Of a stretch of 64,000 nucleotides of DNA, positions 38,134-62,167 are shown in pieces. Both the position numbers and the translations under genes were made by a program. The notes beneath the pieces were generated by a model. It did not search any database and was not told the DNA's origin. It was given only the letters and a program-made list of their open reading frames with translations. Source of the DNA: an uncultured archaeon (GTDB lineage Archaea; Asgardarchaeota; Lokiarchaeia; Sigyniarchaeales; SOKP01); the NCBI GenBank assembly GCA_964583985.1, contig CAZOYD010000004.1, positions 18,809-82,808 of the forward strand. The letters run 5' to 3'. Each line of letters opens with the position of its first letter. Within the stretch, counting starts at the first letter, position 1.

Positions 38134-39126
38134 CTAATCAGAAATTCCATCCTCAGAAATCGAGAAGATTGCATCTTCTTCCGGTAAATTTGGAGCATCA
38201 ATAATTTTAGCAACACGTTGTTCTCCTTTACCTTTTCGTAAATAAATCCGAATTGTTGCACCATGAGCAACAATATTTCCACCTGTTGCAGTTATAGGAT
38301 TTCCATAGAAAACATCTGGTTTGGCAGAAACTTGATTTGTGAAAAATACCGCCATTTCATCATACATCTCACTGATACGTAAAAGATCATGGATATGTGT
38401 ATTTAATGTTTGTTGACGATTAGCTAAAGTCCCCCTCCCGATATATTCACTTCTAAAATGTCCGATTAAAGAATCTACAATAACTAATTTTATGTTTTTT
38501 TCTTCGATTATTTTTGAAGCTTCCTTGATAAGAAGTATTTGATGATCACTGTTATATGCTCTACCAACAACAATATTTTGGAGTACTGTTTTATAATCCA
38601 TATCTTTAGCACTAGCCATTTGAATAATACGCTCCGGTCTAAAAGTACCTTCTGTATCAATATATAAAGCACCTCCCTCAAGTCCACCATCTTCATAGGA
38701 ACGTTGCACATTAACACATAGCTGGTGAGCTAGTTGAGTTTTCCCAGTTCTAAATTCTCCAAATACTTCAGTTACTGCGCCTGTTTCTAGTCCACCCCCT
38801 AACAAATCATCTAGATTATGTCCTCCTGTCGAAATTCTTCTCATCTTTTTTCTCTTTTCCCAAATCACATCTGCTGGCTTGAAACCCATCTTTTCAATAT
38901 CTTGAGCGGCTTTTATGAGTTTTTCAGCTGTTTTTTCACCGATACCTGCATCTTCCATTAATCTAGAAATTGGATACATTGCTAACAAACGTATAGATAT
39001 TATACCAGAAGCCTTCAACTTTTTAAGAGTAACTTCCCCCACTCCTGGTAAATCATCCAATTCAAATGTTGGGTTAGAATTTGTACTATCATCTTCTCCA
39101 TTGGATGGAGCATTCTTCTTAGCCAT
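38134..39126 (-). CDS. radA: DNA repair and recombination protein RadA
   Basis: 330 aa. N-terminal HhH ([17 protein letters not shown]), Walker [15 protein letters not shown], Walker [30 protein letters not shown]. Confidence 0.97.
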
Positions 39127-50784: not shown

Positions 50785-51030
50785 AATTCATCGCGTGATT
50801 CAAGTTGACTCATAGAACAGAAAAGATAACCTTAAATATCTAATTTTTGTCCTATGATAATTGAAATAAATTTTGCAGTGGTATGAAGTAAGTAAACTTA
50901 GAATGAAAACTATCATATTTATCTGTCAGACTCAAATAAATTTTTATATCCTTTATATCAATATATTTATAATTAAAACAATAAATAAACAATTAGGTAA
51001 TTGCTATTGTCTGAAATTAAATTATTTTCC

Positions 51031-52365
51031 ATGTTCGTTGAGAGCATTCAATTAAATATCGATGATTTTTTAGTAGAAGAGCTTACAGAAATGCAAAAGG
51101 AAATCATAGATGAAGCCACGTTTATTTTCAAGGAAAATATCGTTGGAGATATTAAGCCCTTTGGAGGAAATATAAAAAAAAACGAGGAAAAATATAATGA
51201 ATTATTAAAACATGCAGAAGAGGAACTCAAATTAGAAAAATATAAAGATATCAAGAAGCAACTCAAGGACTATCTTAGTAAATTACCAGAATTAATCATA
51301 AAAACCTGTGGAGCTAAAATTCCTGTTAAAGAATTTCCTTGGGTAGATATTATATTTCGAACTGTACCTCGTATTATATATGATGAAAAAGTAAAACTCT
51401 TAGATAAATCAATTACTTATTATGGAGAAATTAAATGTTTCATTGGTAGAACAACCCTCTATGGTAAAATCAAGGATCAAGAGCCTCTGTTTGCACCATT
51501 TACAGGAAATCTTGATTTAGGAGGGTACAAGCTTGATACCGCGACAGAAAAACCTAAATCGGAAATGTTCTCTTATGTTAATGCTATCATAAATTCATTT
51601 GATTCAGCCATTACAAAAAGTCAATTAGCTAAGTACCATGAAGAATTCTCTCGGCATGGAGATCCAATCTGTGATTTTTTTATGAAGGAAGATGATTTAA
51701 AAGAATCATTATCAAACCTAACATCCGCGTTTGAAAGCGGCAGAATAAAATCTGACACTGCCGTTTGTGGTATTGCGGTACCAATACCTTCAGATAAAAC
51801 AACACTAATAATCGTAATTGATGAAAGCGATGATAGTAATAGGTATACGAAATGTTTTGAAGCGCAATTAAAATTCTCTGCAGCAGCATGTAATGCCCCC
51901 ATCCCAATGTCGGGAACAATCCCTACTCAAGGAGAACAAACTCCTGGAACTGTTAGTACACCAGGAGGTCAAGAGCTTAAAATATGGTCTGCCGAAGAAT
52001 TAGCCGCACAAGCACAATCGAGATTGAATTCTCAACCGGAAATGCCCGTATGGACAGAAGAAGAATTAGCTAAGCACATTTCCGAAAGAGGAACGGGACT
52101 TCCAGAAGGAATAGAAATGTGGACCGAAGAAGAATTGTTAGAATTAGCTAAACAGAGAGGTGGTGGTGGATTAAATATTCCTGAATGGGAAGATCAAGGA
52201 TTACCTGAATGTAAAAATTGTGGTTATGCTCTAAGATCGGGATGGGATAAATGCCCTGTTTGTGAAACTCCCGTGGGAGAGCAATCTTCTAATAAAACGG
52301 AAAACTCCGAAACACAAAAATCCGAAGAATCTACTGAAGAATCATTAAAAGATCCAGAAGAGTGA
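51031..52365 (+). CDS. hypothetical protein with tandem Trp-acidic motifs and C-terminal zinc ribbon
   Basis: ORF 51001..52365. ATG 51031 preferred. Unknown N-domain of about 290 aa, Pro/Gly/Thr linker, KIWSAEEL / VWTEEEL / MWTEEEL / PEWED repeats, CKNCG..x9..CPVC, acidic tail. Confidence 0.6.
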   Translation: MFVESIQLNIDDFLVEELTEMQKEIIDEATFIFKENIVGDIKPFGGNIKKNEEKYNELLKHAEEELKLEKYKDIKKQLKDYLSKLPELIIKTCGAKIPVKEFPWVDIIFRTVPRIIYDEKVKLLDKSITYYGEIKCFIGRTTLYGKIKDQEPLFAPFTGNLDLGGYKLDTATEKPKSEMFSYVNAIINSFDSAITKSQLAKYHEEFSRHGDPICDFFMKEDDLKESLSNLTSAFESGRIKSDTAVCGIAVPIPSDKTTLIIVIDESDDSNRYTKCFEAQLKFSAAACNAPIPMSGTIPTQGEQTPGTVSTPGGQELKIWSAEELAAQAQSRLNSQPEMPVWTEEELAKHISERGTGLPEGIEMWTEEELLELAKQRGGGGLNIPEWEDQGLPECKNCGYALRSGWDKCPVCETPVGEQSSNKTENSETQKSEESTEESLKDPEE

Positions 52366-52510: not shown

Positions 52511-53545
52511 TTGTTATCCAATATTTTCTTATTAAAAGGAAATACTTTCCATGATTTGAATTCTCTAGATATTTTTAGCTATCCAGATGATATCTTGAGA
52601 AATAGAAATCATGATTTTGTAAAAAAGGTCATTTTTGGTCATGATCATGGAATTATTGTAGAGAATTATCGTAAAGATATGGCGAATGAGTTGGAGCATT
52701 CAAATCAAAAACTCAATCAAAAATTGAATGATTATTCCTTAGATCGTCCCGTCCCTCAAAATATCGATGGGTTAAATGTGTATACAATATGCATTAATTC
52801 AAAGATGATAATTGGGTTAATTTTTGAAAAAAATGATAATCCAATTGATTATAAAGAGATTTTTGAAGATTTATCGAATGAAATGCTAAATAATGAAAGA
52901 TGTTGCAAGTTTGAAGATGAAATTGAGATTGAAAACTTTCTAATAACTCTTTTTATTGATATTAGGAGATATGGAGATGAATTTATAGAAAAAGCTCCCG
53001 AAATGGCTTTCAAACCCATTGGTATCTTCATTAAAGTGTTTCTCTTTGGTATTGACGATGTTGGTAAAACATCATTTGCACACCGAATTAAAACAGGAAA
53101 ATTTATAGATAATTCTTTCACTCCAACCCGAACTTTCAATATCGAATATATCCAAAAACAAGACGGATATTTAGCAGTTTGGGACATGCCAGGACAACGG
53201 GCATTTAGGGATAAATGGTTTAAAGGAATTCAAGATTCCAATATCATTATATATATGATAGATGCTGCAAATCAGTTGCGATTTGAAGAATCCAAAAGAG
53301 AATTATGGAATTTTTTAAATAAGCATGATTCATCTGGAATTCCTCTTTTAATTTTGGGAAATAAAACAGATCTAATCACGAAACCCGAAGAAATAGAAAG
53401 TAATCTTTTCAGAACTAAACAAGAAATAATGGATTATTTTGAACTTGATAAAATCAACGATCGAGATTATTATTTCTTTTTTACATCAGTAAAGACTAAT
53501 TTTAATATGAATGAAGTAATGAACACTCTTTTTAATATAGTGTGA
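52511..53545 (+). CDS. Arf/Sar-like small GTPase with an uncharacterised N-terminal domain of about 170 aa
   Basis: 344 aa, TTG start. G1 GIDDVGKTS, G3 WDMPGQ, G4 GNKTD, G5-like TSVK in aa 173-344. Confidence 0.8.
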   Translation: MLSNIFLLKGNTFHDLNSLDIFSYPDDILRNRNHDFVKKVIFGHDHGIIVENYRKDMANELEHSNQKLNQKLNDYSLDRPVPQNIDGLNVYTICINSKMIIGLIFEKNDNPIDYKEIFEDLSNEMLNNERCCKFEDEIEIENFLITLFIDIRRYGDEFIEKAPEMAFKPIGIFIKVFLFGIDDVGKTSFAHRIKTGKFIDNSFTPTRTFNIEYIQKQDGYLAVWDMPGQRAFRDKWFKGIQDSNIIIYMIDAANQLRFEESKRELWNFLNKHDSSGIPLLILGNKTDLITKPEEIESNLFRTKQEIMDYFELDKINDRDYYFFFTSVKTNFNMNEVMNTLFNIV

Positions 53546-53655: not shown

Positions 53656-54252
53656 ATGTTTAAAAGATTAAAAAAAGATTTGAATATTAATATCGAAGAA
53701 AAGGATGGACAACTGTTCTTGGGTGATAAAAAGAAAGACATGCGCCTAGTAATGCTGCGACCCAATGAAATAATGGAATTTTGTGAGTTTACTGGTACGA
53801 ACGCAGAAGATATTTTGAGTTGGGTCGGAAAAACTCTCGGAAAGGGTTTTATGGAACAATTCTTCTATAATAAGGATTGGAGTGCTGAAAATCTTGCCGT
53901 AAAGAAAGAAGTGGTTCTTGGAACATTGGAAGCCTTGATGTTAATGGGATATGGGGCCTTAACAGGGCTCTTCAAAAAAGATCACATCATGATTAACGTT
54001 TATGGATCCCTCGCAAAAGAGGAAAAAGAAAGCGTAATGGCTAAAAATTTATGCGTGTTATATCTTGGTATATTCACGGGAATCTTGGACGTGCTCGGAA
54101 TTGAGGCTGACGGAAAAGAAATAGAGTGCATTTTAACGGGTGGTGAAAAATGTTCCTTTAAATTTGACTTCATCGGAGAAGAAATTGACGATAGCTTAGT
54201 TGATGAGGATCTTTCAGAAGAAACTGTAACCGAATTTTTAGCATCTCTCTAA
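53656..54252 (+). CDS. V4R-domain protein (Bet3/TRAPP-related fold)
   Basis: 198 aa. C-terminal pattern C..YLGIFTGILDVLG....(E)IECILTGGEKCSFKF matches the V4R Cys signature. Confidence 0.6.
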   Translation: MFKRLKKDLNINIEEKDGQLFLGDKKKDMRLVMLRPNEIMEFCEFTGTNAEDILSWVGKTLGKGFMEQFFYNKDWSAENLAVKKEVVLGTLEALMLMGYGALTGLFKKDHIMINVYGSLAKEEKESVMAKNLCVLYLGIFTGILDVLGIEADGKEIECILTGGEKCSFKFDFIGEEIDDSLVDEDLSEETVTEFLASL

Positions 54253-54590: not shown

Positions 54591-56942
54591 ATGAATGAAA
54601 AAGGCGTCAAACTAAAAGTTGACTCTTATTCAGGTCCACTAGGAAAGATCAAGGGATTCGAATTTACAGCGGGAAAACTTGTAAGTGAAGGCGATGAAAC
54701 GGAATGGGAAGTGATGGGACCGACCCCAAAACCTCATATTCCTACTCTACGTCCCTGGTTCTTCAAATTAATGGAAAGATACAAACCTTATTATATGCCT
54801 ATATGTGATATGTGTTGTTTGTGCACTTATGGTAAATGTAATCTTTCTAAAGGGAGAACTGGCGCATGTGGTATAAATATGGAGACTCAACAAGCAAGGA
54901 TAGTCCAAATTGCATGTGCTATTGGAGCCGCATGTCATAGTGCTCACGGTGATCATCTACTACATTGGCTCAAAGAGAAATATGGCAACGTTCCAATTAA
55001 TTTTGGAAATAATATTGCGGTAGAAATGCCACTTACGCGATTGCTTGTGGGAATGAAGCCAGAAACCTTAGAGGATTTGGAGACTGCTATGGAATGGGTT
55101 CATTATACAATCACCCACGTTTTAGCAGCTGGACATACAGGTCAAGAATCAAATTATATCGATTATGAAAATAAAAGTTTTGTTGCGGGATTAGCTGATG
55201 AGGTAGGCATGGAGATAGCTGATGCCGTTCAAATCGCAGCATATGGTTTCCCCATGGGTGAAGCAGATGTTCCAATTGTTGAGTTAGGCATGGGAACGAT
55301 GGATGTAGAAAACAAAGCAACGGTATTGATGATTGGACATAATGTAGCACCTGGTATCGAACTTGTAGACTATATTAGAGAAAAAGGTTTAGAAGATAAA
55401 CTTGATGTGGGAGCAATTTGTTGCACAGCACATGATTTAACAAGGTATTATGATGGTGCTAAAGTAATTGGTTCAATGTCAAGACAAATGCACTTTATCC
55501 GTTCAGGATTAGCTGATGTAGTTATGGTTGATGAACAATGTGTAAACCTCCGAAGTTTTGAACAAGCCCAACTTGTAGGATCTCCGTTTATTGCTACAAA
55601 TGAGAAAAACATGGGGGGTTTACCCGATAGAACTAATGACCCCGCTGAAGAAATTATTGATGATTTAGTCAGTGGTAGAGTCCCGGGAGTTTTAATTTTA
55701 GATCCGATAAAAGCAGGCATTGTAGCTTCTGAAACTGCTGTTAAAATAAAACCAATTAGAAAGGGTAGAAGTGGAGTTCCAGATGAGCAAGGTTGTATTG
55801 ATATGGCCTATAATTGCAATGGATGCGGTAATTGTCAACGAAACTGTCCTAATGATCTTCCTCTTGTAGAGGGAGTAAGACTTGTCAAGGAAGGCGATTT
55901 TTCCGTGCTAGCCGATGCGTTTGATCACTGTTTAGATTGTGGAAGGTGCGAGGCAGACTGCATGAAAAATGTTTCTCCATTAACACTTTTAATGTATGCT
56001 GGACGGGATAAGATAAGACATGAGACATTTAACATGAGAGTTGGAAGAGGACCCATACAAGATACAGAAATAAGAAATGTTGGGGCTCCGATTGTACTTG
56101 GAGAAATACCTGGAATTGTAGCAATAATTGGATGTGCAAGTTATGGCAAAGAAATCCAAGAATTATACAAGATGGCAGAAGAATTTCTTATACGAAATTA
56201 CATTGTGGTAGTTTCTGGGTGTGGTGCAATGGATATCGGACTTGTTAAAGATGAAGATGGTAAAACATTGTATGATCGATTTCCGGGAGATTTTGATCGC
56301 GGAGGATTAGTGAATGTCGGATCTTGTGTTTCTAATCCACACATTACTGGTGCTGCTTGTAAGGTAGCAAATATTTTCGCAAGAAGACCTTTAAGAGGAA
56401 ATTTTGAAGAAATCGCAGATTATATCTTGAATCGAGTAGGTGCTGTAGGTGTAGCGTGGGGCGCAATGTCTCAAAAAGCTGCAAGTATTGCATCGGGCGC
56501 TAATGGTTTGGGAATTCCTGCAGTTTGCGGACCTCATGCCGCAGAATATCGAAGAATGTACATTGGACGTTCTGATGATGACGAAACATGGAAAGTTTTT
56601 AATGCACGAGATGGAACACCAGATCAACTAGTAGGACCCGCACCTGAACATTTGCTTTGCACTGCTGAATCAATAGAACAAGCAATTTGCTTAGTTGCGA
56701 AATTAGCTATTAGACCCGCGGATAACTCAAAAGGCAGAATGATCAAACTTTCTCATTGGATAGACTTGGAAAGAAAATATAAAGGCGTTGATTTGCCAAA
56801 CGACTTAGAGAAATATATCCGTGTTGAATCAGATATTCCAATCAATATGAAAGAAGAAATTCACGAATATCTAAAGCAAAAAGATTGGCAACCACGTGAG
56901 ATAGTAGATCCAACTTTAATCAAGAGATTGTGTAGAGTTTAA
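54591..56942 (+). CDS. cdhA: acetyl-CoA decarbonylase/synthase complex alpha subunit (Ni-CO dehydrogenase catalytic subunit)
   Basis: 783 aa. N-terminal Cys cluster CDMCCLCTYGKCNL...GACG. Inserted 2x[4Fe-4S] ferredoxin motifs CNGCGNCQRNCP and CLDCGRCEADC. C-cluster region GCGAMD, GSCVSN. Confidence 0.9.
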   Translation: MNEKGVKLKVDSYSGPLGKIKGFEFTAGKLVSEGDETEWEVMGPTPKPHIPTLRPWFFKLMERYKPYYMPICDMCCLCTYGKCNLSKGRTGACGINMETQQARIVQIACAIGAACHSAHGDHLLHWLKEKYGNVPINFGNNIAVEMPLTRLLVGMKPETLEDLETAMEWVHYTITHVLAAGHTGQESNYIDYENKSFVAGLADEVGMEIADAVQIAAYGFPMGEADVPIVELGMGTMDVENKATVLMIGHNVAPGIELVDYIREKGLEDKLDVGAICCTAHDLTRYYDGAKVIGSMSRQMHFIRSGLADVVMVDEQCVNLRSFEQAQLVGSPFIATNEKNMGGLPDRTNDPAEEIIDDLVSGRVPGVLILDPIKAGIVASETAVKIKPIRKGRSGVPDEQGCIDMAYNCNGCGNCQRNCPNDLPLVEGVRLVKEGDFSVLADAFDHCLDCGRCEADCMKNVSPLTLLMYAGRDKIRHETFNMRVGRGPIQDTEIRNVGAPIVLGEIPGIVAIIGCASYGKEIQELYKMAEEFLIRNYIVVVSGCGAMDIGLVKDEDGKTLYDRFPGDFDRGGLVNVGSCVSNPHITGAACKVANIFARRPLRGNFEEIADYILNRVGAVGVAWGAMSQKAASIASGANGLGIPAVCGPHAAEYRRMYIGRSDDDETWKVFNARDGTPDQLVGPAPEHLLCTAESIEQAICLVAKLAIRPADNSKGRMIKLSHWIDLERKYKGVDLPNDLEKYIRVESDIPINMKEEIHEYLKQKDWQPREIVDPTLIKRLCRV

Positions 56943-57041
56943 ACATTAATCCTTTTTTACAATATTTTTTATCTTTTTAATTTATCTTTATTTTAAACAA
57001 ATAATTCTAATACAAAATCACAAAAAGTCTTGAATGGAATC

Positions 57042-57248
57042 ATGCTAGACAAACAAAAGGAAAAATTGGCTAAATTGTGTGAACACTGGGCAAATCACAA
57101 TGAATCTCACATGGAAAGTTTTGTAAAATGGCGGGATATAGCAAATGAGATGCAGTTAAAATCAGCGGTTGAAGATTTAAATAAAGCAATTGAATCAATG
57201 AAGGAGTGCAATAAACACTTGCTCTCTGTAATAGATGGCATTAAATAA
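57042..57248 (+). CDS. small His/Cys-rich helical protein
   Basis: ORF 57030..57248. ATG 57042 gives 68 aa with CEHWANHNESH and KECNKH. Same strand as cdhA, 100 bp downstream of it. Confidence 0.4.
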   Translation: MLDKQKEKLAKLCEHWANHNESHMESFVKWRDIANEMQLKSAVEDLNKAIESMKECNKHLLSVIDGIK

Positions 57249-57280: not shown

Positions 57281-58489
57281 TTAGATGAACAAATTGATTA
57301 AGGGCAATAATTCTTTCTTGAAATAACCTATTTTATCATGCAATAATTGCGGATTTTCAGAAAGGAACCATAGATATACGGGGATATTTAATTCGGAATA
57401 CTCAAATAGCTTTTCACCTCGAATCGTAAATCCATTCAATGGAAACTCGAGTGTCATGATACTTTCACGCATTAATCCCATGGATTGATGGAAATTTGAA
57501 AGGGTTTGCAACAATAGAGCAGTATTATTCAATATTGCTTCACCAATATCATCTGAAGTGTATGTGCCGAAAATTAAACCGTCCATCGAAATTAAGCTGG
57601 TGGATTTTCCTTTAATTGAACCAGTGAAATCCTCTAATATATTTTCAATAATTTCAGACGTTTCAGATACTTTCTTTAATGCTATGCTAAACATTTGCAT
57701 GATGGTTTCTTTTTGATAAATGGTTGTATCAGCAAAATCGACTTTAAAGTTGCTAAATTCACTAGAAATTTGAGTGAATTTACTTTTAATGGCTTTAACA
57801 TTGTTCTCCCACTCTAAGGTTCTTCGAAAATCTTGATCACTCTTGCTAAGAACCACAAATACTGGGGGATTTTCATTTAAATCGCGGAGTGCGTTTAATA
57901 CTTGCCGATAATAATTAGCCGCTTCAGGAAATCGATCCGAATCTTTTGTATCTATAACATACAAGACTAAATCAGCATCGGTAAAAAATAGATCAGGTCT
58001 ATTAAAGTACAATTTTTCCCGATATTGTACTTGCCCTCCTAAATCCCAAGAGATGATTGGATAACCAAAAAAATCTAGTTTCTCTCGTTTAACGCCTCTC
58101 GTTGGTAATAATGATTTGATAATCGAGAATTTATCTTGTAAAACTGCCAAGATGGAACTTTTTCCTCCATTATCCAAGCCAATCATGAGGATTTTTTTGT
58201 GTGATTTCATTTGTTCTTTGATCGTTTTAACTACTACTTTGGCTATTTTAACCCATTTTGATAAAATTTGTGAAGGGATTTCCTTAATCTCTGGAAGATT
58301 ATCTTCGGAAATTTTAGCCAGATCTTCGATTGATTTGATTTTATGCTCCTCTAATTTGTTAGAAGATATCTGATCAATTCCAATTAGAGTATCAGGCTTA
58401 AAATCTAATATTTCTTCAAGCTCGTTAATCAGGATCGAGCTCTTAAAGAAATCTTTTATTTTTACATTCTTCATCTCGTTATTTGACAT
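57281..58489 (-). CDS. Sar1/Arf-like small GTPase fused to a C-terminal roadblock/LC7-like domain (N-terminal HhH-like segment)
   Basis: ORF to 58501 (GTG); ATG at 58489. G1 GLDNGGKSS (Sar1: GLDNAGKTT), G3 WDLGGQ, G4 SKSD. C-terminal ~125 aa show an alpha-beta-beta-alpha-beta-beta pattern (SLISMDGLIFGTYTSDDIGEAILNNTALLL). Confidence 0.8.
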   Translation of the reverse strand: MSNNEMKNVKIKDFFKSSILINELEEILDFKPDTLIGIDQISSNKLEEHKIKSIEDLAKISEDNLPEIKEIPSQILSKWVKIAKVVVKTIKEQMKSHKKILMIGLDNGGKSSILAVLQDKFSIIKSLLPTRGVKREKLDFFGYPIISWDLGGQVQYREKLYFNRPDLFFTDADLVLYVIDTKDSDRFPEAANYYRQVLNALRDLNENPPVFVVLSKSDQDFRRTLEWENNVKAIKSKFTQISSEFSNFKVDFADTTIYQKETIMQMFSIALKKVSETSEIIENILEDFTGSIKGKSTSLISMDGLIFGTYTSDDIGEAILNNTALLLQTLSNFHQSMGLMRESIMTLEFPLNGFTIRGEKLFEYSELNIPVYLWFLSENPQLLHDKIGYFKKELLPLINLFI

Positions 58490-58686
58490 GAAACATCGCA
58501 CAAGATTTCAAATAAATAGTCATTTAATTTAAAATGGTTTTATTTAATATGAAACTTCTAATTTATAAAATTAATGGAAACAAAAAAACACCCTATCCAA
58601 AAAAAAATCCATAATTATTTATTCTTTTAATTAAATTATAAAATTAGAATCATTCATACACCGTAGATTATTTAAGGTTTAGGCTA

Positions 58687-59868
58687 GTGACTGAACGAGT
58701 TCCTGAAAATATTGTAGTTTGTATAGATACTTCTAGATCCATGTTTAGAACAGACTATAGGCCAAACAGACTAAAAGCCAGTGTAGATGCGTTGAAAAAA
58801 TTGATTAGTGAAAGGTTAGCACTTGATTCTAATAGCTATTTTGCGATAGTGAAATTTTCATCGAAAGCAAAAAAAATAAGCGATTTTACCAATATTAAAG
58901 AGGATCTCTATGGAACTCTGAATAATATTAAGTTATCAGGAAAATCATCGATGGGTGAAGCGATCGGTTTATCAATTAAAATGATTATTGCTGAATTAAG
59001 GAAAATTGCTGCAAAAACTCCGCGCATCCTCCTTGTAACTGATGGGATGTATTCAAAAATGGCGGTGGATCCTTTAAAGATGGCTAGATTAGCTCAAGGA
59101 TTGAAAATTAAAATTGATTCTATGCGCTTAGGAGAATTGTCAACCAATAATATATTGAAGAAAATTAGCGATATTACAGGAGGAAATTATTACTTTAATA
59201 ATGATAGTGATACTTTACTTCGATCAGCCCATGATCTAGCAGAGTCAAATATCAAGACTTATGGTGGAGGTATAGGCACGTTTATACAAAATTCTGTTTT
59301 TCTGAGAAAAATAGCTGCCGATTTACTGAGAGTTCAAGATTTAACCAAAGATCAAGAGCAAAGATTATTACAAATAAGAGGATTAGCAGATTATAAAAAA
59401 TGCTCAATTTGTTTCTCTGATACTAATCCTTATACTAAAAGTTCATTTTACGTGAGTGGTAGATATTGTCCCAGTTGCCAAACCCCGTATCATATTCATT
59501 GTTTAGCAGGGTGGGCAGAATCACAAAAAGATGCCAAAATGAAACGTGCTGGAACTGTGAGATGTCCACATTGTTTCTATTTATTGAAAATTCCTACAGA
59601 AGTCACACAAATTCAAAAATTTAAAACGCTAGCAAGACCAAGTATTCAATCTAGAGAGTTGCCTGAAGGTCCGCAACAATTTGACGCTAAAATAGTAAAA
59701 TTTGATTCGGATGCAATGTTTATTTCATGTCCAGTATGTAATTTAATCTTTGATGATGGGCAAAAAATTGTAAAATGTGGAAGTTGTGGAACTCTTTATC
59801 ATGAACATTGCTTTAAAGAATTAAAAAATGGGCAGTGCAAAATCTGTGAATCATTCTTAAAGCTTTAA
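58687..59868 (+). CDS. von Willebrand factor A domain protein with two C-terminal C4HC3 (RING-CH / PHD-type) zinc fingers
   Basis: 393 aa, GTG start. MIDAS DTSRS plus LLVTDG. Finger 1 (59401-59574): C-x2-C-x18-C-x2-C-x4-H-x2-C-x20-C-x2-C with HCLAGW. Finger 2 (59728-59847): C-x2-C-x12-C-x2-C-x4-H-x2-C-x8-C-x2-C. Confidence 0.8.
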   Translation: MTERVPENIVVCIDTSRSMFRTDYRPNRLKASVDALKKLISERLALDSNSYFAIVKFSSKAKKISDFTNIKEDLYGTLNNIKLSGKSSMGEAIGLSIKMIIAELRKIAAKTPRILLVTDGMYSKMAVDPLKMARLAQGLKIKIDSMRLGELSTNNILKKISDITGGNYYFNNDSDTLLRSAHDLAESNIKTYGGGIGTFIQNSVFLRKIAADLLRVQDLTKDQEQRLLQIRGLADYKKCSICFSDTNPYTKSSFYVSGRYCPSCQTPYHIHCLAGWAESQKDAKMKRAGTVRCPHCFYLLKIPTEVTQIQKFKTLARPSIQSRELPEGPQQFDAKIVKFDSDAMFISCPVCNLIFDDGQKIVKCGSCGTLYHEHCFKELKNGQCKICESFLKL

Positions 59869-59969: not shown

Positions 59970-60845
59970 ATGCCAGATTTTTATGAATATGGAACTCTTA
60001 AATTGGGATATGGGAATTTTAAACGTCCTCCAATATTAATTGGAACCATGTTTTATCAAGGTCAAACACTCGTAGAACGTGATGATCCTTCTAAATTCAA
60101 TATTGAAAAAGCAGAAAAACGGATATTAAAGCAAAAGTCCTTAGCAATGCAATATAAAATTCCAGATTTATTAGAAATTTCTGCTGATACTCCTAAAGCA
60201 ATGTTGAAGTATCTAGATTTTTACCTTGATCATTTTGAGCCTCCATTTGTTCTTGGGGGTACTCTTGAAGCAAGATCTGCAGGACTTGAATATCTTAATG
60301 AACGAGGGATAAAACCGACTGAATTTATATACAATGCAATCTCGAATTTAAAAAATAAAGCTGAAATAGATCTTCTTAAGAGATTTAAAATTCAATCTGC
60401 AGTAATTTTGATTTTAGCTTCACCAGATATGACATCTACTCAACGATATGCTTATATCACGGAGAAAAGCCAACAAAATGATATTAATATAATAGATGGT
60501 TTGAAGAAATTGGGTATTGAGAGAATTTGGATTGATGGAGGTGTCATAAATCTAGAAAGTTTAGCACATATTATGGAAACACAACAAATGATATCAACAT
60601 CACTTAAATTACCTGTCGGTACGGCTCCAAACCTCTTTCTATTCAAGTATTCGTCTCCTCGATTAAACGAGAAATTTCACACTAGATACAGAAGGGCCAG
60701 CATCATGTTCATCGCTACTTGGTACTCGAATTTTATATATTATGGTCCAATTGAAGATGCAACTGAGTGTTTTGCATCAGCATATCAATCTTATGAGTAT
60801 AAAAAAATAGTATCTGAACATAATATCCGACTTATGGATAGTTAA
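59970..60845 (+). CDS. MtrH-family (tetrahydromethanopterin S-methyltransferase subunit H-like) methyltransferase
   Basis: 291 aa. Aligns by eye to MtrH: IGTMFYQGQ..VERD...FN..KAEK, YLDFYL, PFVLGGT.EARSAG, YNAIS, LPVGTAPN, YGPIEDATECFASA. Confidence 0.75.
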   Translation: MPDFYEYGTLKLGYGNFKRPPILIGTMFYQGQTLVERDDPSKFNIEKAEKRILKQKSLAMQYKIPDLLEISADTPKAMLKYLDFYLDHFEPPFVLGGTLEARSAGLEYLNERGIKPTEFIYNAISNLKNKAEIDLLKRFKIQSAVILILASPDMTSTQRYAYITEKSQQNDINIIDGLKKLGIERIWIDGGVINLESLAHIMETQQMISTSLKLPVGTAPNLFLFKYSSPRLNEKFHTRYRRASIMFIATWYSNFIYYGPIEDATECFASAYQSYEYKKIVSEHNIRLMDS

Positions 60846-61012: not shown

Positions 61013-62167
61013 ATGTTTAATCAAGATGATAAAGAAGAACAAGAAATTCAAGCAATAAAGCTTATAGATCAAGCAGAAGTGCTTGCTGATCGAGGAAAAG
61101 GAGAAGAAGCAATTAAAATATATGAACAAGCAGCACAAATATATTTAGATCTTGGAAGCTATTTAAAATTGGATGAACTATTCATCCGAATAACATCCAT
61201 AATACTAAAATTTAAAAATCACATCCAGGCTACATACAGATTGAAATCAATCATTAGAAAAACGGAGGAATTAAAGCTATTTGAAATTTCTGCCAAATTA
61301 TTAGTTAATTTAGGAAATATTGCTTTTAAAATGAATGATTGGGAGACTGCTGGTGAGAGTTGGAGTCAAGCTTCTGATTATTTATATACAGCAGATCCTG
61401 AAGAATTTCATAATTTAGCTTCGATCCTATTACTAAAAGCAGGACAATCTTATGAACGGGCATCGCAAACCAGAGAATTGGGAAAGAAACTTATTTTCAA
61501 AGCAGTAATGAGACATAACAAGTTTTTTGAACTTTACCAAGAAGAAGAAAAACAGGCTCAATTGTTAATAGCAAATAAAGATTTTGAAGCAGCATCTAGA
61601 AAATTCCTTGAAGTCTCCCATTATTTCAAGAAAACATTGGATAATTTAGGTGATCTTTTAAATGATGAGGAAGATAAAGATACCATGCTTAACGCAAAAG
61701 CAAGATTCATTCATTTTGTTGCAGAGTATCAAACAATATCGGCCATCTGCTTATTTGCAACAAATAATCCAGAAAATAACGAGCAGATACAAGATCTTGG
61801 AAGGAATTCCATTAATTTATTTAAGGATTCCATATCCTTACTTCAAGATTATTTATACTCCAAAAAGAAAGAATTTGATAAGGAGATAGTACTAAGAATA
61901 ACCTTTGATACAATGTTATTAGCAATTATTCAAAGAATGTTGAATATTAAAGAAATCAACTGCATTGAAAATCTCTTAACCCCAATTGAAAGCAATAAAG
62001 CTATTGTCAAGGATATTAAGAAAAGTCCCTACTTTAAAATAACTCAACAAATTGAAGAAGTGGGAATAAATGATACTTTAAACAGTATTCTAAAAATAAA
62101 TTTAGGACACTTCGAAAACATAAAAAATGCCCTGGTTACGCATTTTCTGAATCAAAATCCAATATAA
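61013..62167 (+). CDS. TPR-like helical-repeat protein
   Basis: 384 aa. Repeated about 34-40-aa helix pairs with A/G/Y/L spacing (EEAIKIYEQAAQIYLDLGSY; WETAGESWSQASDYLY). Confidence 0.5.
   Translation: MFNQDDKEEQEIQAIKLIDQAEVLADRGKGEEAIKIYEQAAQIYLDLGSYLKLDELFIRITSIILKFKNHIQATYRLKSIIRKTEELKLFEISAKLLVNLGNIAFKMNDWETAGESWSQASDYLYTADPEEFHNLASILLLKAGQSYERASQTRELGKKLIFKAVMRHNKFFELYQEEEKQAQLLIANKDFEAASRKFLEVSHYFKKTLDNLGDLLNDEEDKDTMLNAKARFIHFVAEYQTISAICLFATNNPENNEQIQDLGRNSINLFKDSISLLQDYLYSKKKEFDKEIVLRITFDTMLLAIIQRMLNIKEINCIENLLTPIESNKAIVKDIKKSPYFKITQQIEEVGINDTLNSILKINLGHFENIKNALVTHFLNQNPI

Follow-up and report, generated by a model that had tools for sequence, protein, structure and literature searches.

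A Rag/Gtr-type GTPase with an acidic helix-hairpin-helix domain at a conserved locus of Lokiarchaeia

Rag-like GTPases of Asgard archaea bear on the origin of the nutrient-signalling and membrane-identity switches of eukaryotes. One gene in a 64,000-nucleotide stretch of DNA from an uncultured archaeon of the Sigyniarchaeales (Lokiarchaeia; assembly GCA_964583985.1, contig CAZOYD010000004.1, positions 18,809 to 82,808; hereafter the window) raises the question of what kind of GTPase such an archaeon encodes when the G domain is flanked by further domains on both sides. A first-pass annotation made from the letters of the window had described its product as a Sar1/Arf-like GTPase with a roadblock/LC7-like C-terminus, hence of Rag/Gtr-like architecture, and with an N-terminal segment resembling the helix-hairpin-helix (HhH) domain of RadA/Rad51. 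Our analysis very probably identifies the protein as a Rag/Gtr-type GTPase that works by the general GTP-switch mechanism, and its N-terminal domain as an (HhH)2 module of acidic character.

The open reading frame (ORF) is on the minus strand of the window, which has approximately 31% G+C and whose nearest relatives are metagenome-assembled genomes (MAGs) labelled Promethearchaeota or Lokiarchaeota. It spans 57281..58489 when read from an ATG and 57281..58501 when read from a GTG. Since every orthologue begins at the ATG equivalent, with MS(N/E/D), and measures 401–403 amino acids (aa), the ATG start, the 402-aa product and the coordinates of the first-pass annotation are right; the G1, G3 and G4 motifs quoted there are all present in the translation. 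The ORF is not a product of chance because it has 560 homologues at E ≤ 1e-5, of which at least the best 120 are full length and 73–89% identical. Two plus-strand ORFs within the gene (57558-57716 and 58116-58373) are short, antisense and without support. Names in public databases are automatic and comprise “ADP-ribosylation factor-like protein”, “50S ribosome-binding GTPase” and “hypothetical protein”.

The G domain is of the Rag type. The best Pfam match is Gtr1_RagA (PF04670; 5.9e-22, 78.7 bits at a cutoff of 22, residues 99-305), followed by Arf (8.1e-19, 68.2 bits), MMR_HSR1 (3.6e-07) and Ras (1.3e-05); with Gtr1_RagA and then Arf on top, the domain is not closer to prokaryotic families. 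When the protein alone is searched with phmmer against PDB sequences, the Lokiarchaeal Rag-like structures 8yl2 (2.6e-34) and 8zla/9m28 (1.9e-24) lead, and Arl3/Arf (~1e-11) and Gtr1/RagA (~1e-9) come further down. A family profile finds RagA at 1.1e-36, aligning profile columns 126-402 with RagA 5-280 and thus G and roadblock domains together, as well as Gtr1 (1.6e-32), RagC (1.2e-28) and Gtr2 (3.7e-26, Gtr2 residues 2-310); the best Arf-family match, Arl3 (1.9e-27), is restricted to the G domain. Switch II is five residues longer than in Arf and equals that of RagA in length. The family consensus at G4 is HKxD (“lHKvD” aligned over “VHKMD” of RagA), and at the position of the SAK motif it is TSI (“TSIyd” over “TSIWDE”); our protein itself has SKSD and TTIYQ at these places, variants specific to the orthogroup. 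The nucleotide-binding and catalytic apparatus is intact because the motif residues are conserved in the 146-sequence family alignment, in which T130, D180 and K216 are invariant and conservation reaches 90% or more at G104, G109, K110, D149, G151, G152, Q153 and D218.

An alternative is a membrane-binding, Arf/Sar1-type GTPase that starts budding and carries the roadblock-like C-terminus as an accessory. The Arf/Sar-like G1 (GLDNGGKSS) and G3 (WDLGGQ), the Pfam Arf match, the rank of Arl3/Arf as the next PDB sequence matches after both Lokiarchaeal Rag-like structures, and the first of the database names all fit it. We regard it as very improbable, given that the Arf model is covered only at positions 10-132 of 174, switch II has the wrong length, G4 is not NKxD, the N-terminus (MSNNE...) lacks the myristoylation glycine, a folded five-helix HhH domain takes the place of the amphipathic N-terminal helix in the structure model, and Rag/Gtr proteins, matched over both domains, stand above every Arf by family profile and by structure. 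Residue 2 is Ser and the protein has no cysteines, so a lipid anchor of the eukaryotic kind is absent. The Rag/Gtr part of the first-pass description therefore stands, and “Sar1/Arf-like” undersells the Rag-length switch II and the HKxD and TSI consensus of the family.

The structure was modelled with AlphaFold2 on the 146-sequence alignment (predicted local distance difference test, pLDDT, 89.4; predicted template-modelling score, pTM, 0.81); this run replaced a single-sequence model that was unusable (pLDDT 36.8). The model has five N-terminal helices (4-12, 24-29, 40-48, 54-59 and 73-92) and a G domain spanning residues 98-274. The C-terminal part consists of helix 277-291, strands 294-301 and 306-311, helix 314-336, strands 344-349, 354-364 and 369-377, and helix 380-399, which gives residues 277-399 the alpha-beta-beta-alpha-beta-beta-beta-alpha topology of roadblock domains; a DGLI motif is found at residues 303-306. 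When the C-terminal 139 aa were scanned against Pfam on their own, no model matched, those for roadblock domains included, and the roadblock assignment therefore rests on the structure model and the family profile. Foldseek against the PDB ranks 8YL2 (LokiRagO) first (6e-22, template-modelling (TM) score 0.77), followed by RagA, RagC, Gtr1 and Gtr2 (1e-16 to 1e-10) over approximately 300–315 columns in both domains with target-normalised TM scores of 0.75–0.79; 8ZLA/9M28 (LokiRagM) were also matched. Arl3, GerdArfR1 and other Arf-family structures rank lower, with approximately 180–190 columns in the G domain only. Model topology, Foldseek scores and the profile alignment to RagA 5-280 thus bear out the roadblock fold proposed for the C-terminus, and the domain extends beyond the span first given for it (about 57347-57664) to the very C-terminus.

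The fusion brings a G domain and a roadblock domain together, as would be expected of a self-contained MglA/MglB-like module in which the roadblock domain acts in cis as GTPase-activating protein or guanine nucleotide exchange factor, e.g. in cell polarity or protrusions. MglB and other roadblock proteins regulate small GTPases, and MglA-like GTPases are encoded in Asgard genomes (PMC10933270). Such a module is nevertheless scarcely probable: neither the 50 best Foldseek matches nor the 60 best profile matches include an MglA or MglB, the arrangement of G and roadblock domains superposes on Rag/Gtr at the TM scores given above, and the sequence profile aligns with the Rag C-terminal domain. 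In Rag/Gtr proteins, the roadblock domain has a role in dimerization rather than in catalysis.

The combination of a G domain and a roadblock domain in a Rag/Gtr architecture is already known from Asgard archaea. A 2016 report described fusions of roadblock and GTPase domains in Lokiarchaeum. In strain MK-D1, a Rag-like class is known that joins GTPase and roadblock domains and has an insert in switch II; its additional domains were marked “?” (Tran et al., 2024; PMC10933270). A study of Arf family GTPases in Asgard archaea distinguishes the groups ArfL, RasL, RagGtr, MglA and ArfR (Vargova et al., “Arf family GTPases are present in Asgard archaea”; bioRxiv 10.1101/2024.02.28.582541). Its Table S3 lists KKK40445.1 (Lokiarch_51460, also from the Klinger list), TKJ24243.1 and TFG23534.1 as “RagGtr” by tree, and these are co-linear with our protein at 63.4%, 70.7% and 66.4% identity, respectively. 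All three share its KDFFKS N-terminus, the HhH segment, an SKSD or NKSD G4 and the roadblock C-terminus, and differ from it in nothing structural; the table entries give the class of the GTPase and leave the N-terminal domain unnamed. The orthologues thus belong to the published RagGtr clade, from which the true Asgard Arf relatives (ArfR) are set apart, a further point against an Arf/Sar1 identity.

Among solved structures, LokiRagO (8YL2, a homotetrameric, GTP-bound crystal) and LokiRagM (8ZLA/9M28, monomeric) share the G domain and the C-terminal roadblock with our protein. They are its best matches in sequence and structure, yet paralogues at approximately 28% identity in the Foldseek alignment. 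Because the N-terminal extension of 8YL2 is short, with the profile match starting at chain residue 16 and the pre-P-loop Lys near residue 49, this protein has no HhH domain. Our literature search found no paper on 8YL2, 8ZLA or 9M28. The gene is no new kind of gene, since its orthologues are catalogued as RagGtr and paralogues have been crystallized. RagA-D and Gtr1/2 have the same order of G and roadblock domains, homology over both, a Rag-length switch II, a TSI-type motif for SAK and no lipid-modification site. In contrast, they are only 15–20% identical to our protein, have HKMD in place of SKSD at G4, lack the ~95-aa (HhH)2 domain and are obligate heterodimers in eukaryotes, for which nothing in our protein gives an indication. 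We know of no TOR, Ragulator or GATOR context in archaea, and no TOR-pathway genes were seen at the locus.

How close, then, is this GTPase to the eukaryotic Rags? In a survey of 150 cluster representatives at 50% identity, sorted by the position of the P-loop, the family comprises forms of ~305 aa without an N-terminal extension, forms of ~400 aa with an N-terminal domain of 95–115 aa, and forms of ~475–505 aa with a longer extension; the (HhH)2-G-roadblock architecture makes up approximately a third of the sampled Rag-like clusters. When human RagA (residues 5-280) was searched against all collected family proteins, the short forms scored a median of 53.7 bits (maximum 74.7) and the HhH-bearing forms a median of 36.2, with 39.8 for our protein. 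In a neighbour-joining tree of the G and roadblock cores, RagA is nested among short Asgard forms, the clade that holds our protein comprises 11 HhH-bearing clusters plus one short, probably truncated sequence, and the remaining HhH-bearing forms make up two more large clades. The phylogenetic placement thus comes from the published RagGtr clade; our own tree, a crude one with RagA as the one eukaryotic sequence and sampling biased towards our protein, is indicative only. Because the short Asgard forms resemble human RagA more than the HhH-bearing ones do, the HhH subfamily should not be regarded as the direct counterpart of the eukaryotic Rags.

What distinguishes the subfamily is its N-terminal domain. 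Alone, our protein gives only sub-threshold matches to HhH models (RNA_pol_A_CTD at 0.004, HHH_2, HHH_5, and RadA at 0.04). A profile of 47 aligned ~100-aa domains from family members is significant against (HhH)2 domains: among PDB sequences it finds the NusA acidic repeats AR1/AR2 best (3.8e-07; AR2 alone 1.8e-04), then the Rad51 N-terminal domain (8e-04) and the RNA polymerase alpha C-terminal domain (4e-03), and it also matches the thumb HhH of DNA polymerases IV and iota. Pfam models match many of the 47 domains directly (HHH_5 in 18, best 1e-06; DUF4332 in 12). The window has its own RadA (38134-39126, minus strand; Rad51 2.7e-90), whose N-terminal domain is a canonical HHH_5, and hhalign aligns our profile to this domain over 62 columns including both hairpins (94.3% probability, E 9.8e-08). 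At the pairwise level, BLASTP with the N-terminal 95 aa detects no similarity to it (E 21), so the domain of the GTPase is not a recent duplicate of that of RadA. The likeness to RadA/Rad51 noted in the first-pass annotation is genuine remote homology by sequence comparison, and it holds at the level of profiles.

In this orthogroup the domain is of acidic character. Its core (residues 23-72) has a net charge of −8 and a pI (isoelectric point) of 4.3, and the last helix, 73-95, is basic and runs into the G domain. The first hairpin of the orthogroup reads G-I/V/F-D (GID in our protein), and many paralogues retain the canonical GIG hairpin in a motif “IKGIG...L...GI.TI.DLA”. NusA AR2 is likewise acidic and has a G-h-D hairpin, GVD in the alignment. 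Unlike the (HhH)2 domains of NusA, RadA/Rad51 and RNA polymerase alpha, ours is fused to a GTPase, and in the model no helix is formed at the position of helix one of its second HhH motif. The acidic repeats of NusA are protein-binding modules, and the acidity of the core makes protein binding likelier than DNA binding. A search with the N-terminal profile retrieved just eight protein fragments, all from the same GTPases, and is uninformative on other architectures. No open-access text that we found ties Asgard small GTPases to helix-hairpin-helix domains, which, with incomplete coverage, is weak evidence. The (HhH)2 identity of the domain in this subfamily and its acidic character here appear to be undescribed. 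A large subfamily carries at its N-terminus an (HhH)2 module hitherto without a label, which in this orthogroup is of an acidic, NusA-AR-like type.

In a scan of one genome per GTDB species, at least 117 genomes have a relative of the gene; the best 80 are 64–91% identical and nearly all from Promethearchaeota/Promethearchaeia MAGs. The gene is under strong purifying selection and is found, at a single conserved locus, in the genomes of at least 117 Lokiarchaeial species; the orthogroup is near-universal and slowly evolving in Lokiarchaeia. The gene order is near-invariant: TPR/SNAP-like, MtrH-like and VWA-RING, then divergently the GTPase, DUF8180, CdhA-like, V4R, an Arf-like GTPase and a zinc-ribbon protein. 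When the neighbours in the window were searched by tblastn against 83 loci, where many misses are contig ends, DUF8180 was found in 80, VWA-RING in 76, MtrH-like in 71, CdhA-like in 64, TPR/SNAP-like in 63, V4R in 61 and the Arf-like GTPase in 57.

Lying between CdhA-like and MtrH-like genes, the GTPase might be an accessory or maturation factor for these Wood-Ljungdahl enzymes. However, CdhA is missing in seven loci (L019, L022, L026, L027, L029, L030 and L044) in which V4R, the Arf-like GTPase and the zinc-ribbon protein are present beyond it and the rest is kept. The contigs span the position of CdhA, and the link to the Wood-Ljungdahl genes therefore looks incidental. In a distant locus (L084, on a 62%-GC Asgard contig, L084/L085), neither CdhA nor MtrH is nearby, yet VWA-RING and TPR genes are present. 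To our knowledge, GTPases and ATPases that act on metallocentres belong to other P-loop families, which also counts against such a role. We hold it to be extremely improbable and reject a functional link to CdhA and MtrH. Separately, the CdhA-like protein is the most conserved gene product of the neighbourhood (77–96% identical across loci), the trio of Arf-like GTPase, V4R and zinc-ribbon genes is syntenic in 57–61 of the 83 loci and lies next to the HhH-Rag gene also where CdhA is missing, and the DUF8180 gene converges on the 3´ end of the GTPase gene with a 32-bp gap containing a T-run. V4R belongs to a superfamily that has been related to TRAPPC3 (Tran et al., 2024; PMC10933270).

The most telling neighbour is the divergent VWA-RING gene. 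Its product combines a VWA domain, in which the MIDAS (metal ion-dependent adhesion site) DxSxS motif is intact (DTSRS), and, after it, two RING-like zinc fingers. At L084, the orthologue P0125 is only 38% identical to our protein, yet a VWA-RING gene is again its divergent upstream neighbour (40% identity, residues 3-393), and a TPR/SNAP-like gene adjoins the latter (29% identity across 380 residues). The locus of a homologue at 37% identity (P0130, L090) has a partial, divergent start of a VWA gene. The homologues P0131, P0132, P0133 and P0135, on short or cut contigs, stand outside this comparison, and a metagenome scan with P0125 yielded five partial paralogues only. That the GTPase gene and a VWA-double-RING gene form a conserved divergent pair appears not to have been described before; the survival of the pair in a 62%-GC Asgard lineage makes the VWA-RING protein a concrete and testable candidate partner. 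The TPR/SNAP-like protein gave only designed-TPR matches among PDB sequences, and its homologue at L084 carries an unmarked SNAP match.

The VWA-RING protein has the domain order and nearly the length of TFIIH p44/Ssl1, with a Pfam Ssl1 match of 33.5 bits (cutoff 27) and Tfb4 just below cutoff. It is against this background that a DNA-binding role of the HhH domain comes up, in a nucleoid- or repair-associated GTPase that perhaps acts with its p44/Ssl1-like neighbour. The homology to the RadA/Rad51 N-terminal domain and the polymerase thumb HhH, and the canonical GIG hairpin of many paralogues, would fit such a role. Against it stand the G-I/V/F-D hairpin and the core charge of the orthogroup itself, as well as the NusA acidic-repeat pair as best profile match. 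The VWA similarity is weak and, judged from the matches, may be generic: VWA_2 scores 59.7 bits, and among PDB sequences TFIIH p44 and Rpn10 are matched about equally (E ~1e-3 to 2e-3). A DNA-binding GTPase is thus unlikely. The features of the gene and its surroundings are collected in Table 1.

Table 1. Positions in the window of the GTPase gene, its domains and motifs, and the genes around it.
Feature	Coordinates	Strand	Basis or remark
Complete coding sequence, HhH-G-roadblock Rag-like GTPase	57281..58489	-	402 aa and stop codon at 57281-57283
N-terminal segment, residues 1-22	58424..58489	-	Conserved KDFFKS motif; F15 conserved at 90% or more in the A1 alignment
Acidic (HhH)2-type core, residues 23-72	58274..58423	-	Profile matches; first hairpin LIGID
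Long basic helix KWVKIAK..., residues 73-95	58205..58273	-	Model helix 73-92; net charge +6
Rag-type G domain, residues 96-275	57665..58204	-	Pfam, profile alignment to RagA, Foldseek
G1 / P-loop GLDNGGKSS, residues 104-112	58154..58180	-	Translation; G104, G109 and K110 nearly invariant
Switch I PTRG, residues 129-132	58094..58105	-	T130 invariant across the family
G3 WDLGGQ, residues 148-153	58031..58048	-	Candidate catalytic Gln153; Rag-length switch II next
G4 variant SKSD, residues 215-218	57836..57847	-	K216 invariant, D218 nearly invariant
G5-equivalent TTI, residues 255-257	57719..57727	-	Aligned with TSI of RagA TSIWDE
C-terminal roadblock domain, residues 276-402	57284..57664	-	Model topology, profile to RagA, Foldseek
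VWA-RING neighbour (393 aa)	58687..59868	+	Divergent; Pfam VWA_2 5e-16 (59.7 bits), Prok-RING_1 2.2e-08, zf-RING_2 1e-06
MtrH-like methyltransferase	59970-60845	+	Flanks the GTPase
TPR/SNAP-like protein (384 aa)	61013..62167	+	Pfam TPR_12; alpha-SNAP family PF14938 2.6e-05, just under cutoff
DUF8180 protein (72 aa, helical)	57030-57248	+	DUF8180 from the precomputed annotation of a homologue
CdhA-like CO dehydrogenase/acetyl-CoA synthase alpha subunit (783 aa)	54591-56942	+	Flanks the GTPase
V4R-domain protein (198 aa)	53656-54252	+	V4R
Arf-like GTPase (344 aa)	52511-53545	+	~170-aa uncharacterized N-terminal domain, then G domain (Arf 6.6e-28)
Zinc-ribbon protein (454 aa)	51001-52365	+	C-terminal zinc ribbon

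How might such a protein work? We are highly confident that it would act as a regulatory switch cycling between GTP and GDP and not as a membrane-bending Arf. With moderate confidence, and by analogy with the Rag/Gtr dimers and the homotetrameric LokiRagO, it would oligomerize through the roadblock domain; since the locus encodes no paralogue alongside it, the oligomer would probably be a homo-oligomer. More tentatively, the acidic HhH domain could be a docking module for proteins, as the NusA acidic repeats are, and not a clamp on DNA. It is equally tentative to propose the VWA-RING and TPR/SNAP-like proteins as partners or effectors; the conserved linkage, i.e. gene order, makes the former, and less strongly the latter, the candidates.

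Several observations weigh against parts of this proposal. LokiRagM, a solved Lokiarchaeal paralogue, is monomeric, and dimerization through the roadblock domain is therefore not guaranteed. Judged from its sequence, SKSD in place of HKxD or NKxD may shift nucleotide affinity. The Lokiarchaeial gene order, from which alone the partners were derived, could partly reflect shared ancestry, and one homologue (P0129, 34% identical, at L089) has no VWA-RING neighbour. The HhH subfamily is also not the closest relative of the eukaryotic Rags.

One possibility that goes further, and that we consider rather unlikely as a whole, is that HhH-Rag, VWA-double-RING and TPR/SNAP-like proteins constitute one conserved Asgard signalling module, in which the Rag switch would dock via its acidic (HhH)2 domain on a RING-containing, E3-like scaffold or would be modified by it. 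If true, this would provide an archaeal precedent for the RING-containing regulators around eukaryotic Rags, and (HhH)2-G-roadblock proteins would make up a major branch of the Rag-like family that has had no name so far.

A few further observations were made in the genomes of relatives. The paralogues P0123 and P0124 adjoin a QueC-like gene. In a Promethearchaeota MAG (L088, 1532-4042, plus strand), they are encoded in tandem beside it as two HhH-Rag paralogues of 404 and 402 aa, the second 51.5% identical to our protein, with a small longin-like gene (Fuz_longin_1, weak) nearby; the tandem matches the operonic Rag-like pair reported in strain MK-D1 (PMC10933270). Downstream (3´) of the P0125 orthologue (L084, 7240-10021, plus strand) are three small-GTPase genes on the same strand, of 293, 285 and 298 aa; the last product is 37.5% identical to residues 99-402 of our protein, has G and roadblock domains without HhH and is a possible heterodimer partner. 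Finally, a MAG labelled “Candidatus Nanopelagicaceae bacterium” has a GTPase of 74% identity together with all the neighbours except CdhA (L027, DATKTW010000126.1), most likely on a mis-binned archaeal contig.

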